From a virus (lineage: Duplodnaviria > Heunggongvirae > Uroviricota > Caudoviricetes): DNA of 5,814 bases. A program made the position numbers and the translations under genes. The notes below the pieces were generated by a model. It worked only from the letters and a program-made list of their open reading frames with translations. It searched no databases and had not been told where the DNA came from. Below are positions 617 through 4,110 of this stretch, one piece after another; the stretch's first letter is position 1, and every line of letters starts with the position of its first letter. The stretch lies in IMG/VR virus record IMGVR_UViG_3300011888_000053; one strand, 5' to 3'.

Positions 617-777
617 AAATGCGCCGCCTGAACCACCAGACTATATCTGCCACTCATTGTTGTGAGTGTGGCGATCCCATAGATGAGCGAAGACGCCTGG
701 CCGTTCAGGGTTGTCGGACTTGTGCAAGTTGCCAGGAAGTTCTGGAGCTTATCAGTAAACAGAGAGGTTCGAAGTGA
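556..777 (+). CDS. TraR/DksA-family C4 zinc-finger protein (phage-type, 73 aa)
   Basis: 73-aa protein with a four-Cys motif (CCEC...CRTCASC) and a GDPIDERRR segment, matching the size and pattern of phage/plasmid TraR-like zinc-finger proteins. Confidence 0.8.
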   Translation: MADIIDSASEIEELQRNTAIKMRRLNHQTISATHCCECGDPIDERRRLAVQGCRTCASCQEVLELISKQRGSK

Positions 778-1249
778 GCGAAATTAACTCTCAGGCACTG
801 CGTGAAGCGGCAGAGCAGGCAATGCATGACAACTGGGGATTTGACGCGGACCTTTTCCATGAGCTGGTAACACCATCGATTGTGCTGACACTGNNNNNNN
901 NNNGAACAACGCTCGTTATATCGCAGCTTTCAACCCTGAAGTAGTACAGGCACTACTGGACGAACGGGAAAGAAACCAGCAATACATCAAACGCCGCGAC
1001 CAGGAGAACGAGGATATTGCGCTAGCGGTGGGGAAACTGCGTGTTGAGCTGGAGACAGCAAAAATCAAAACTCAACGAGCAGCGTGAGTAGAAGGTGTTA
1101 TCTCGCATGGAAGTAAGCGTATTGCTGAACTGGAGGCCTGGGTTGAATACACAAGAGCTGCATACGTAAGAGCAAAAGACAAGGGAGATTTGATCAGAGT
1201 TATTACCAGCCAACCAACGGGATTTTACGCTTACGTACCATGTAATTAG
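774..1249 (+). pseudogene. Ea22-like coiled-coil protein gene, interrupted by an assembly gap and an in-frame TGA
   Basis: GTG 774 overlaps the TraR-like stop and encodes VSEINSQALREAAEQAMHDNWGFDADLFHELVTPSIVLTL. After the N-run, frame 2 reads ...LLDERERNQQYIKRRDQENEDIALAVGKLRVELETAKIKTQRAA, then TGA at 1085..1087, then continues in the same frame as VEGVISHGSKRIAELEAWVEYTRAAYVRAKDKGDLIRVITSQPTGFYAYVPCN to TAG 1247..1249 with no new start codon. Resembles the N-terminal region of ead/Ea22-like prophage proteins (from memory). Confidence 0.45.
894..903. other. Assembly gap (10 N)
   Basis: Run of 10 n characters; true length and sequence unknown, so reading frame across it is unreliable. Confidence 0.95.
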
Positions 1250-1385
1250 GAATCCTTGAAGTGGCAGCCTAACTGCGGATACACTGAAATGGCGATTTGG
1301 TAACATGTTTCGCACAAGGCTGTTACTACGCTTAGAGATAATCAGCCATGATTAAACGCTTTGTAAAAAGTAAAAGGAAATTACA

Positions 1386-2000
1386 ATGAAAAAATCAATA
1401 CTAATTTTAGGGCTTACGTTAATTGTCTCATCTCAAATACCATCGGCAATGGCAAAAAATGAATCAAAACTATGGGTTGTTGTTGATCGAACGGAAAGAC
1501 ATACCTGCCCTTCAAGTAAATGTGGAGTGGCTGGGAAACTATTTTTCAGGGAAGGCGTAGATTTTCTAGAAAAAAAAGGTGAATGGGTTCGTATAACTGA
1601 GCCATATTCAGCCTCATGTGTTGGAGGGGAAAGCGAATATATTAAAGAAGGTAATAAATCCTGCACAAGAAAAAATGGAATCGTTAATGGCAAGTTTTCA
1701 GAATGGGTTAAACTTAGTGATCTTAGCAGTGAAAGGCCATCAGATCCTGCTGAAAATGCGAGCGGAGATGATACTTTAATCAAAGGATCTGATGACTACC
1801 GTATATACAAAAAAGAGTTTTCTTCGGCAGCTAGGAAGTTAATAAATGAAGGGGTCTGCACGGAAAGCGATTTTAAGGAAATCGGAGGGTGGATGGCATC
1901 AAGCAATAAGGGTGAAAACATCTATTTCACATATTGCGGAGGAATGACGTTGTCGAACAGAATATACCTAGATGTTAAAAGTGGAAAGACTTTTAGATAA
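1386..2000 (+). CDS. Secreted Cys-containing protein of unknown function (204 aa), possible SH3b-like N-terminal domain; AT-rich cargo gene
   Basis: RBS AAGGAAA 6 nt upstream of ATG. N-terminus MKKSILILGLTLIVSSQIPSAMA is a typical Sec signal peptide with an A-x-A cleavage motif. Mature region has 6 Cys and a W-V..R..P...G-W-V-R-I pattern reminiscent of bacterial SH3 domains. Clearly AT-rich by eye compared with the flanks. Confidence 0.75.
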   Translation: MKKSILILGLTLIVSSQIPSAMAKNESKLWVVVDRTERHTCPSSKCGVAGKLFFREGVDFLEKKGEWVRITEPYSASCVGGESEYIKEGNKSCTRKNGIVNGKFSEWVKLSDLSSERPSDPAENASGDDTLIKGSDDYRIYKKEFSSAARKLINEGVCTESDFKEIGGWMASSNKGENIYFTYCGGMTLSNRIYLDVKSGKTFR

Positions 2001-2070
2001 TATGATATTACCAATAACAGTATTGATTTAATGCCTCCATAGAATTATCTCTAGGAAGTAGGTATAAGAA

Positions 2071-2106
2071 AAGCCCGCACAATGAGCTGCTGCGGGCTTT
2101 GTGTTA
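2071..2106 (+). terminator. Stem-loop terminator downstream of the secreted-protein gene
   Basis: Perfect 9-bp stem AAGCCCGCA (2071..2079) / TGCGGGCTT (2091..2099) with an 11-nt loop, followed by a T-rich tract (TGTGTTATT). Confidence 0.5.
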
Positions 2107-2150
2107 TTCGCCATATTTTATGAAGCAAATACGACACTATAGATAATTAA

Positions 2151-2660: not shown

Positions 2661-3089
2661 ATGAAATTAGACCAGCAATATCTAAAAGATCTACTTATCG
2701 CATTCGAAAAAACTCGTGGCCCTGACACGATGCTTAGTGAACTAGAGGATAATGGCTTTAATAGATATGACCAAGATTTTATTTTCCATATGCGATTATT
2801 ATGTGACTACGAATTAATAGTCAGGGTTGATGGAAAACCTGGGTTCGGTCATATAATGTCCAAAGCGTTAGGGGAAGGTGTTGGATATAGTTGGATCGAA
2901 GTACCACTGAGGTTGACAGCAAGAGGGCATGATTTTATTGCTGACTTACGTCAAAAGGATGTCTGGCAAGCTATAAAAACAAACTTTAAGGATGAGGGAA
3001 TTAGTACACTTATGAGTGTTTCAAAATCACTAGCAAAAGGCTTTGCAAGGAAAAAGATAAAAGATATTACAGGAATAGATATTGAATAA
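2661..3089 (+). CDS. DUF2513-like small protein (142 aa); AT-rich cargo gene
   Basis: Strong RBS GGAGG 5 nt upstream of ATG. The N-terminus (MKLDQQYLKDLLIAFEK...) and the motif LTARGHDFIADLRQKDVWQAIK match my recollection of the DUF2513 pattern (LTxEGHxFLDxIR...W). Markedly AT-rich by eye versus the upstream gene. Confidence 0.65.
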   Translation: MKLDQQYLKDLLIAFEKTRGPDTMLSELEDNGFNRYDQDFIFHMRLLCDYELIVRVDGKPGFGHIMSKALGEGVGYSWIEVPLRLTARGHDFIADLRQKDVWQAIKTNFKDEGISTLMSVSKSLAKGFARKKIKDITGIDIE

Positions 3090-3135
3090 TTCTTAGCATC
3101 AAGCAACTACTGCCTTTGGTGGAAATTATATCTGA

Positions 3136-3160
3136 ACTCGCTACGGCGAGTTTTGTTTTA
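3136..3160 (+). terminator. Rho-independent terminator after the DUF2513-like gene
   Basis: 6-bp stem ACTCGC / GCGAGT with TACG loop, followed by TTTGTTTTA. Confidence 0.6.
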
Positions 3161-3172
3161 TGGAGATGATAA

Positions 3173-3340
3173 ATGCACTTCCGAGTCACAGGTGAATGGA
3201 ATGGAGAGCCATTCAACAAAGTTATCGAAGCAGAGAACATCAACGACTGCTATGACCACTGGATGCTGTGGGCGCAGATAGCACATGCAGACGTAACCAA
3301 TATTCGAATTGAAGAACTGAAAGAACACCAAGCCGCCTGA
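3173..3340 (+). CDS. Small prophage protein (55 aa, MHFRVTGEWNGEPFNKVIEAENINDCYDHWMLWAQIAHADVTNIRIEELKEHQAA)
   Basis: GGAG 7 nt upstream of ATG 3173; stop TGA 3338..3340. Below the ORF-track size cutoff, so hand-translated. Feels like a conserved small prophage protein but I cannot name it with confidence. Confidence 0.55.
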   Translation: MHFRVTGEWNGEPFNKVIEAENINDCYDHWMLWAQIAHADVTNIRIEELKEHQAA

Positions 3341-3355
3341 TGGCGGTTTTTTATT
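3333..3355 (+). terminator. GC-rich hairpin plus T6 tract overlapping the stop codon of the 55-aa gene (terminator/attenuator)
   Basis: CCGCC (3333..3337), loop TGAT containing the TGA stop, GGCGG (3342..3346), then TTTTTT (3347..3352). Only 14 nt separate the T-tract from the next ATG. Confidence 0.45.
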
Positions 3356-3366
3356 GGAGACAAGAA

Positions 3367-3711
3367 ATGTCAGATTTGGCTATGAAGGTTTTGAAATGGC
3401 AATCGACTGGCGATGTTGGCATCAGTAGCGCAACTCTTGCCTCAATCGCATGTGGACTGAAAAAGAATATCTATGGTCATAGCTTCGGTGCTCCACATGA
3501 CGCAGCCGATTTCCGACGATGCGTTGCACTGGTTGAGCAGATCCCAGAAATCAGAGATTCATTCGACAAGGTTGCAAAGCGCGTTCCGGCATTCAAAGGC
3601 ATCCTCACCGAATGGGATTCCCTCGTTGCTCTGTTGAAGTCTGAAATGAAGATACACGGAAACAAAGCACCAGAGACTTACAGAAGAATTAGCGAGTTAC
3701 GCAAGGACTAA
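3367..3711 (+). CDS. Hypothetical prophage protein (114 aa; alternative start ATG 3340 gives 123 aa)
   Basis: GGAG at 3356..3359, 7 nt upstream of ATG 3367. The ORF track extends it to ATG 3340, which overlaps the upstream stop (TGATG) and would place the hairpin inside the coding region. No family recognised. Confidence 0.6.
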   Translation: MSDLAMKVLKWQSTGDVGISSATLASIACGLKKNIYGHSFGAPHDAADFRRCVALVEQIPEIRDSFDKVAKRVPAFKGILTEWDSLVALLKSEMKIHGNKAPETYRRISELRKD

Positions 3712-3836: not shown

Positions 3837-4037
3837 ATGCAACACGAACTACAGCCTGATTCACTGGTTGATTTGAAATTCATCATGGCCGATACTGGCT
3901 TCGGTAAAACCTTCATCTATGACCGGATTAAGTCCGGGGACCTGCCTAAAGCCAAAGTTATCCACGGGCGAGCAAGATGGTTATATCGTGACCATTGTGA
4001 ATTCAAAAATAAGCTCTTAAGCCGCGCCAATGGGTAA
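3837..4037 (+). CDS. torI: TorI-like recombination directionality factor / excisionase (AlpA/Xis-family winged helix), 66 aa
   Basis: MQHELQPDSLVDLKFIMADTGFGKTFIYDRIKSGDLPKAKVIHGRARWLYRDHCEFKNKLLSRANG matches my recollection of the 66-aa TorI protein of the KplE1 prophage. GGAG 9 nt upstream of ATG. Sits next to the att-like tRNA fragment, as expected for an RDF. Confidence 0.8.
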   Translation: MQHELQPDSLVDLKFIMADTGFGKTFIYDRIKSGDLPKAKVIHGRARWLYRDHCEFKNKLLSRANG

Positions 4038-4053
4038 AATAGCGGGTAAAATA
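4032..4053 (+). repeat. Tandem direct repeat GGGTAAAATA-GC-GGGTAAAATA spanning the torI stop codon
   Basis: Exact 10-bp unit at 4032..4041 and 4044..4053. Candidate integrase arm-type or RDF binding sites; function is inference. Confidence 0.35.
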
Positions 4054-4110
4054 TTTCTCACATCTAAAAAACATCATTCCAATCAATCCCCTGCCGCGCC
4101 AAGTAGATGT

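Follow-up and report, generated by a model that had tools for sequence, protein, structure and literature searches.

Overall organization of the cassette

The stretch of DNA analysed here (the window, 5,814 nucleotides of IMG/VR virus record IMGVR_UViG_3300011888_000053) represents the right end of a lambdoid Escherichia coli prophage. It carries a single-gene cassette at positions 1218-2150, which encodes a protein of 204 residues and lies between the remnants of two phage genes. In near-identical loci, including that of the isolated phage Chlobot, this block is situated between exo and xis/int. The cassette is chimeric, in that a fragment of a pMUT1-like ColE1 replication origin abuts the ribosome-binding site of the gene, and a hairpin follows the gene. 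The features of the cassette and its two flanks are as follows:

774..1249, plus strand: degenerate ead/Ea22-like gene (left flank), frameshifted, with a run of 10 N at 895-904 and a TAG stop codon at 1247-1249
1240..1372, plus strand: remnant of a ColE1-type replication origin (RNAI promoter and stem-loops 1-2), with DNA homology to pMUT1
1374..1378, plus strand: ribosome-binding site AAGGA, read directly from the sequence, 7 nucleotides before the ATG
1386..2000, plus strand: cassette gene, 204 residues
1386-1454, within the cassette gene: signal peptide (residues 1-23)
1464-1715, within the cassette gene: SH3b domain with a Cys-rich inserted loop (residues ~27-110)
1731-1997, within the cassette gene: conserved RPxDP linker and α3-β3 C-terminal domain (residues 116-204)
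2069..2105, plus strand: terminator-like hairpin, comprising an A-run, a GCCCGCA/UGCGGGC stem and a U-rich tail, 70 nucleotides past the stop codon
2151..2254, plus strand: remnant of humD (UmuD'-like, S24 peptidase), codons 46-80 of 129 (right flank)

A preliminary description, made from the letters of the window, had depicted an AT-rich cargo gene with its own ribosome-binding site and a downstream hairpin, and these three elements were borne out. The G+C content is 0.380 in the gene and 0.359 in its 3' flank (2001-2153), compared to 0.474 on the left (1-1085) and 0.479 and 0.499 on the right (2154-2293 and 2294-2632, respectively). The dip is real yet not unique, because the DUF2513 gene farther right (2661-3089) has a value of 0.364. 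Homologues of the cassette gene are GC-poor relative to their surroundings in six of seven other loci checked, and the AAGGA ribosome-binding site is kept in the homologues from E. fergusonii, Citrobacter and Aeromonas. The stem of the hairpin spans 2073-2097, between the A-run and the tail UUUGUGUU. A stretch of 61 nucleotides containing it folds at -22 kcal/mol (z = -3.4), and one of 200 shuffled sequences was equally stable. A consensus terminator scan called the hairpin on the minus strand only (2088-2072), and it could act on either strand. In plasmids, the 3' flank (2003-2150) always accompanies the cassette (16 of 16 records).

A truncated ColE1 RNAI region upstream of the gene

Sequence comparison revealed that positions 1240-1355 share 81% identity over 116-118 nucleotides with plasmid pMUT1 of E. 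coli Nissle 1917 (L100, 1501-1615) and with the record of phage TH38. The homologous part corresponds to the RNAI promoter and nucleotides 1-62 of RNAI of pMUT1-type ColE1 plasmids. The RNAI model (RF00106) scores 80.3 bits at 1554-1655 of the pMUT1 locus and at 3040-3141 of the TH38 locus (L099), where the window aligns. A 146-bp query covering the RNAI region matched 733 plasmid records, and those listed are mostly 2.4-5.7 kb in size. The promoter consists of a -35 hexamer TTGAAG (1256-1261) and a -10 hexamer TACACT (1280-1285) separated by an 18-nucleotide spacer. The E. coli, E. fergusonii and pMUT1 sequences agree in both hexamers, whereas the spacer varies. By this homology, transcription would start at ~1290-1293.

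The similarity to ColE1 RNAI thus extends over the hexamers, their spacing, the 5' tail and stem-loops 1 and 2, and stem 1 of the window contains, by eye, one compensatory change from G-C to A-U. By contrast, stem-loop 3 and the RNAI terminator are missing, as are RNAII and the origin itself, and the ribosome-binding site of the gene follows directly. Folding of the leader revealed no terminator. The remnant therefore cannot support replication and is at most an mRNA leader; 1240-1372 is probably the promoter and 5' leader of the cassette gene.

Two further loci bear on the provenance of the gene. On a P1-like plasmid of E. fergusonii (NZ_CP099330), a segment 85% identical to window positions 1244-2002 lies just past an intact humD. 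A 5.3-kb ColRNAI plasmid of Citrobacter braakii carries RNAI at 2453-2556 (53.7 bits) and a homologue of the cassette gene at 2903-3517 on the same strand, with 350 bp between them. Since this homologue is only 64% identical, the C. braakii plasmid is not the donor. Altogether, we infer a small ColE1-type plasmid as the source of the gene, which would originally have stood just downstream of RNAI there.

The TH38 record (Escherichia virus, MT446410, a lytic Kuravirus labelled "UNVERIFIED") contains a complete RNAI near one end, at record positions ~780-934. Its aligned sequence and Rfam score are the same as those of pMUT1, so that it represents either ColE1 contamination of the assembly or a real capture.

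Ancestral DNA replaced by the cassette

The gene fragment to the right of the cassette best matches HumD (NF051876, E = 2.3e-14) and the PHROG families of UmuD-like proteins. The match covers model positions 47-99 and scores 53.5 bits against the curated cut-off of 120. At the DNA level, the 104 bp of 2151-2254 share 85.6% identity with intact humD in two cassette-free comparators, a phage-plasmid (L002, 3998-4101) and a chromosomal prophage at thrW (L154, 5150-5253). Intact humD of 129 codons occurs on comparator phage-plasmids of ~85-115 kb, and about 111 E. coli genomes, among them that of L154, possess the intact humD arrangement. Compared to HumD of phage P1 and UmuD', the S24-type self-cleaving accessory subunit of Pol V, the window keeps only codons 46-80, with no start codon, promoter, LexA box, N-terminal third or C-terminal third; by analogy, the catalytic Ser should lie in the missing N-terminal third. 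The segment is a dead humD pseudogene stub, and the RefSeq note on it reads "DNA repair protein, incomplete".

The comparators also define the borders of the exchange. In L154, the gene order is erf, abc, further genes, a gene for an Ea22-like C-terminus, an 800-bp non-coding spacer, a LexA box, humD, xis and int, and the LexA box ahead of the intact humD is perfect (CTGTATGTGTATACAG). On the left, window positions 1139-1207/1217 match L002 at 2846-2914 (88%) and L154 at 4001-4079 (87%); the final conserved stretch of the ea22-like gene (1139-1217) is thus the left homology arm common to the cassette-free relatives. Homology stops at 1217 and restarts at 2151, and therefore 933 bp of the window replace ~1070 bp comprising the spacer, the LexA box and humD codons 1-45. 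A second junction, at ~2254, cost humD its 3' part, and a module that other prophages carry beside NinX or ASCH genes begins there. Of 37 E. coli copies in IMG/VR, 36 combine the cassette with its 3' flank and the humD stub. A LexA-box search of the window found none near the cassette or upstream of its gene.

The spacer ahead of intact humD (L154, 4214-5014; L002, 3065-3862) is the stretch that the cassette replaced. It is ~800 bp long, unannotated and hairpin-containing, with a G+C content of 0.39, and ends in a perfect LexA box (TACTGTATGTGTATACAGTA); such a length of non-coding DNA is unusual for a phage.

These results change the reading of the right border. The gene beginning at 2151 had been taken for a phage repressor of the S24 type, truncated where the cassette inserted. 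Its start coordinate and its kinship to S24 peptidases stand, but it is a fragment of a HumD/UmuD'-type gene cut at both ends; likewise, the acquisition of the cassette stands, but a simple insertion does not, as ~1.07 kb of ancestral DNA was replaced. That the cassette inserted into and inactivated a CI/LexA-like repressor gene is extremely improbable. Pfam returned Peptidase_S24 weakly at 2154-2258 (E = 0.036), which would fit such a gene, but the specific matches are to HumD and UmuD'. Unlike a CI/LexA-type repressor, the intact homologues have 129 residues and no helix-turn-helix domain, and they are annotated as HumD-family translesion polymerase subunits. Moreover, in a near-identical locus with the same cassette (L001), the immunity region with cI, cro and cII is intact ~5 kb farther left. 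In the related prophages compared for the insertion boundaries, the gene interrupted here is an intact humD and not a phage repressor, which rules out a repressor identity. More generally, an S24 fragment between exo and xis of a lambdoid prophage can be what is left of humD rather than a repressor gene, which corrects a trap of annotation.

A putatively secreted SH3b protein with an orphan C-terminal domain

The predicted signal peptide of the cassette protein consists of MKK, a 13-residue hydrophobic core (10-residue Kyte-Doolittle maximum of 3.18) and the cleavage motif A-M-A|K. A crude screen for hydrophobicity and motifs found an N-terminal hydrophobic export segment in 37 of 38 aligned homologues. 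About 10 of the 38 have a lipobox-like motif instead (11 motif matches, at least one of them doubtful), and other homologues possess a zinc ribbon and a transmembrane anchor. The six cysteines are residues 41, 46, 78, 93, 158 and 184. Both the signal peptide cleaved after AMA, by the same crude reading, and the six cysteines agree with the preliminary description, as does the SH3b-like character of the N-terminal part, which was found to have the SH3b β-barrel fold.

The protein scores 16.2 bits against the Pfam model SH3_3 (PF08239), whose gathering threshold is 27, and 41 of 56 relatives match the model at E <= 0.01 (best E = 1.6e-14). Structural comparison showed that the strongest neighbours of the SH3b domain nearly all belong to wall hydrolases, including endolysins, NlpC/P60 proteins, lysostaphin and LytB. 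The cassette protein is predicted to bind peptidoglycan via its SH3b domain. It differs from the SH3b domains of these enzymes in an insertion of ~20 residues with a predicted disulfide (the C78-C93 region), which is absent from two distant relatives, and in being joined to a non-enzymatic orphan domain rather than to a hydrolase.

The full-length protein corresponds to phrog_8310 (E = 1.8e-136, positions 1-204 of 204), a family of unknown function, and all 83 close homologues, from E. coli, E. fergusonii, Pseudomonas, Aeromonas and metagenomes, are named "hypothetical". A profile of the C-terminal domain (residues 116-204) retrieved 532 clusters at 50% identity from proteins of 66-514 residues, in which the domain is nearly always C-terminal; most often, an export signal or membrane anchor comes first, followed by SH3b and the C-terminal domain. 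A domain-fusion search of 56 longer relatives found no enzyme domain fused to the C-terminal domain, the added parts being only membrane anchors, zinc ribbons, ankyrin repeats and unknown periplasmic modules. The family is conserved across phyla and has 18 invariant residues, and the invariant features include C158, C184, SDD[YF], GGW..S and YFTYCGG. Comparison with the E. fergusonii copy indicated strong purifying selection, with a ratio of nonsynonymous to synonymous substitution rates (dN/dS) of 0.075 at a dS of 0.75.

No structural relative of the C-terminal domain was found, and scans of the cassette protein against Pfam, NCBIfam and PADLOC gave nothing above threshold. Sequence searches of the PDB with the full-length and C-terminal domain profiles returned only de novo designed TIM barrels, which were rejected as spurious sums of weak repeats. 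Cluster look-up of the relatives gave no names, and a literature search on the protein (phrog_8310, WP_000748282) found nothing.

Distribution and genomic contexts

The cassette is present in 133 of 5426 complete E. coli genomes (2.5%), compared to 1229 for its right flank and 2416 for its left flank; the open reading frame is intact in 129 of the 133 at >= 95% nucleotide identity. The carriers include human, poultry and pig isolates, and in phage Chlobot the cassette lies in a non-essential region. This patchy presence, the different DNA between the same flanks in relatives and the varied mobile contexts described below substantiate the proposal of a horizontally acquired single-gene cargo cassette. 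In two genomes (H5, NZ_AP027713.1, and H6, NZ_OY754443.1), the match to the cassette is split in two, with an IS1 transposase annotated beneath.

The mobile contexts differ among hosts. In Pseudomonas, the gene stands directly after the integrases of small islands; an Aeromonas prophage has it between its antiterminator and lysis genes; and in other viral contigs, it is found near terminase and head genes. In enterobacteria including E. coli, it also occurs on large conjugative plasmids within a captured prophage fragment. Sixteen large plasmids (118-454 kb, mostly typed as conjugative) of Klebsiella, Enterobacter, Citrobacter and E. coli contain a lambdoid fragment with the whole cassette at >99% identity, and the cassette therefore now also moves between genera. 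On the IncA plasmid pA18-1 of C. freundii (L015), the fragment is situated beside IS5, Tn5403 and arsenic-resistance genes. More distant homologues occupy apparently chromosomal loci in Vibrio, Rhodobacteraceae and other free-living bacteria.

The Pseudomonas islands (L003, L007-L010, L020-L021) share a layout of an integrase, a homologue of 204 residues and then three to five unannotated genes encoding proteins of ~208-236, 105, 130 and 333-337 residues; two of the proteins scanned gave weak KilA-N matches. The island of P. monsensis adjoins two sets of pyocin S and immunity genes. Pfam searches of the genes around the homologue in these islands and on the C. braakii plasmid were uninformative.

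Beyond lineage-specific synteny, no conserved partner gene was found in 77 genome loci and 13 divergent viral loci. The lack of a neighbour family recurring across the 77 genome loci argues against a toxin-immunity pair, and this candidate was rejected.

Association with umuDC genes

In two metagenomic contigs (L018, 4019-6411; L019, 4760-7152), the homologue is flanked by an S24 (UmuD-like) gene and an IMS (UmuC-like) gene, the intervening gaps being 44 and 9 bp. The three genes appear to form a umuD-X-umuC operon. At the start of this operon in L018 (4021-4035) is a GTTC-N7-GTTC motif, which we take to be the LexA-box form reported for alphaproteobacteria. In addition, the gene order on the E. 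fergusonii P1-like plasmid is hot, humD and the homologue, and three further loci (L063, L085 and L146) have umuC/umuD genes or remnants ~0.5-2.2 kb from the homologue. This recurrent association may reflect either shared carriage on mobile elements or a real link to the SOS response.

Other features of the window

The remaining annotated features of the window are as follows:

556-777: TraR/DksA zinc-finger gene
2294-2632: phrog_536 regulator-like gene
2661-3089: DUF2513 gene
3173-3340 and 3340-3711: two phage genes of "unknown function"
3837-4037: excisionase TorI
past the prophage end, opposite strand: CscB-like sugar permease

In the left flank, the ea22-like gene of L001 is labelled "ead/Ea22-like family protein, frameshifted; incomplete" in RefSeq. 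Window positions 894-950 (~57 bp around the N run) are absent from the near-identical loci L001, L012 and L015, and leftward of them identity to these loci falls from 99% to 95%.

On the right, the phrog_536 "transcriptional regulator" gene adjoining the humD stub weakly resembles YbfE, a LexA-regulated protein (NF008671, E = 0.0067), and would be a second SOS-themed element near the cassette. The 28-bp gap between this gene and the DUF2513 gene contains a perfect 12-bp palindrome at 2637-2652, GTGACATGTCAC, which is one mismatch off the CTGT-N8-ACAG LexA box and could be an operator. The DUF2513 gene is AT-rich like the cassette and may be a second acquired unit of the accessory region.

Discussion

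Taken as a whole, the segment 1218-2150 is best explained as a moron, that is, an expression cassette complete in itself that was acquired horizontally and lies in the early-left (exo-to-xis) accessory region, and we regard this explanation as probable though far from certain. Morons of lambdoid phages are accessory transcription units, for example bor, lom and sodC. The term is used here in what is reportedly the sense of Juhala et al. 2000. The cassette has defined junctions at 1217 and 2151 with presence and absence among relatives, a deviant base composition, and candidate signals of its own, namely a putative promoter homologous to that of RNAI (8 of 12 consensus positions) and a stable hairpin, flagged as a terminator on the minus strand only. 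As in other lambdoid morons, a single extra gene separates genes that in relatives are neighbours or differently arranged, promoter-like and terminator-like signals accompany it, its product is predicted to be located in the envelope, and the region is non-essential, as seen in Chlobot. It differs from them in that its promoter region is a recognisable fossil of the ColE1 RNAI promoter and of the 5' half of RNAI, that it replaced DNA and destroyed an SOS gene, and that its product belongs to no characterised family.

We propose that the gene came from a small ColE1-type plasmid and that deletion of the RNAI terminator fused it to the RNAI promoter upstream. Loss of the terminator would allow constitutive transcription in the lysogen that does not depend on the phage repressor, and during lytic growth transcription would come from pL. 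The cassette replaced ~1.07 kb of ancestral DNA, leaving dead ea22-like and humD stubs on either side. The product would be exported by Sec, oxidised to three disulfides and retained in the periplasm, held to peptidoglycan through its SH3b domain. There, the C-terminal domain might bind and neutralise an incoming agent that attacks the wall, such as a phage tail lysin or ejection protein, a bacteriocin or type VI secretion system peptidoglycan hydrolase, or lysozyme, thereby giving the lysogen exclusion or protection; we advance this last step only tentatively.

Our best guess is accordingly that the cassette protein is a peptidoglycan-anchored factor for envelope protection or exclusion. Ivy, MliC/PliC, PliG and T4 Spackle are periplasmic inhibitors of wall hydrolases and exclusion proteins. 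Like the cassette protein and its family, they are small, Sec-exported, disulfide-bonded and stand-alone, exist in soluble and lipoprotein versions, and are in some cases phage-encoded. By this analogy, theirs is the most likely functional class for the cassette protein. However, the protein has no sequence or fold similarity to any of them, and we know of no such inhibitor or exclusion protein that uses an SH3b anchor.

Several observations weigh against this interpretation, in its plasmid part as well as in its functional part. Rfam did not call the truncated RNAI, even with E-value limits of 1 for the full window and 10 for positions 1240-1400, the link to RNAI having come only through DNA homology to the TH38 record and to plasmids, and the consensus scan missed the promoter because only 8 of 12 positions match where 9 are needed. 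Transcription of the leader is deduced from homology only. Among 72,556 plasmid records, one small ColE1 plasmid was found to carry a homologue, and that one is only 64% identical. As for function, no known inhibitor, defence or virulence family was matched (Ivy, MliC, PliG-type, PADLOC models and solved inhibitors), and SH3b domains usually accompany enzymes, not inhibitors. Moreover, the chromosomal homologues in Vibrio and Rhodobacteraceae, together with neighbour families that recur across Vibrio, would be compatible with a housekeeping role in the envelope as well as with defence.

The company kept by SH3b domains raises the alternative of a peptidoglycan-remodelling enzyme, in which SH3b directs the protein to the wall and a new catalytic activity, for example hydrolytic or modifying, resides in the small C-terminal domain. 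The structural neighbours noted above, nearly all in wall hydrolases, and the near-invariant polar loop residues of the C-terminal domain (S135-D136-D137, D162, S172, Y183 and N191) are consistent with it, but we consider it unlikely. A connection with DNA damage deserves similarly little weight. Under this alternative, the protein would serve an SOS-linked envelope function, made together with UmuD/UmuC-type genes, such as wall protection during the induction of prophages, tailocins or bacteriocins, and the humD neighbourhood of the window would be a trace of that link. The umuD-X-umuC arrangement with its GTTC-N7-GTTC motif in L018, the same gene order in L019, the hot-humD-homologue order in E. 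fergusonii, the umuC/umuD genes near the homologue in L063, L085 and L146, and the abutment of the cassette on the humD stub all point this way. Nevertheless, more than 70 of the 77 genome loci have no umuDC nearby, umuDC-like operons are common cargo of the same mobile elements, so that co-location may be hitch-hiking, and the cassette deleted the LexA box, leaving none upstream of the window gene.

Two further alternatives appear very improbable. A secreted, Cys-rich, prophage-borne protein in human, poultry and pig isolates might be a host-directed factor of lysogenic conversion or virulence, for example an adhesin or an effector acting on animal cells, the more so as SH3b/GW domains occur in the Listeria invasin InlB (rank 22 among the structural neighbours). 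However, a Sec signal alone makes the periplasm the likely destination, variants exist as lipoproteins or anchored in the inner membrane, homologues are common in free-living marine and soil bacteria (Rhodobacteraceae, Vibrio, Pseudomonas and Acidobacteriota), and no virulence family was matched. Equally, the three gene remnants around the cassette gene (ea22-like, RNAI and humD), the apparent IS1 insertion in the cassette of H5 and H6 and the rarity of the cassette in E. coli would suit a functionless hitch-hiker, left as debris of a plasmid-phage cointegrate and persisting by linkage. Against such debris stand the low dN/dS, the open reading frame preserved in nearly all carriers, the conservation of the family across phyla with its 18 invariant residues, and the retention of both the ribosome-binding site and the promoter hexamers.

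A broader version of the protection hypothesis is a long shot. In it, the family would constitute a new class of peptidoglycan-anchored periplasmic protectors with a previously unseen fold, directed against wall attackers from phages, tailocins and bacteriocins. It would be wired to the SOS response in some lineages through umuD-X-umuC, arming the wall when neighbours are induced. The RNAI leader of the E. coli cassette might in addition act in trans as an antisense RNA, suppressing or excluding pMUT1-type ColE1 plasmids, so that one cassette would hit both phages and plasmids.

Altogether, the cassette is a fairly ordinary kind of phage extra gene, a prophage moron, with an unusual plasmid origin. 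It answers no long-standing question, and what is worth recording is the plasmid-derived promoter and leader and a widely mobile family of wall-binding proteins with an orphan domain. If the moron explanation is true, the locus preserves a clear molecular record of genes passing from a small multicopy plasmid into temperate phages and phage-plasmids, with a plasmid copy-control promoter reused to express phage cargo in the lysogen. The cassette protein would then represent a sizeable, mobile and strongly conserved family of exported wall-binding proteins, with ~530 clusters of the C-terminal domain at 50% identity, and this family would be a sensible place to look for a new activity in envelope protection or exclusion.

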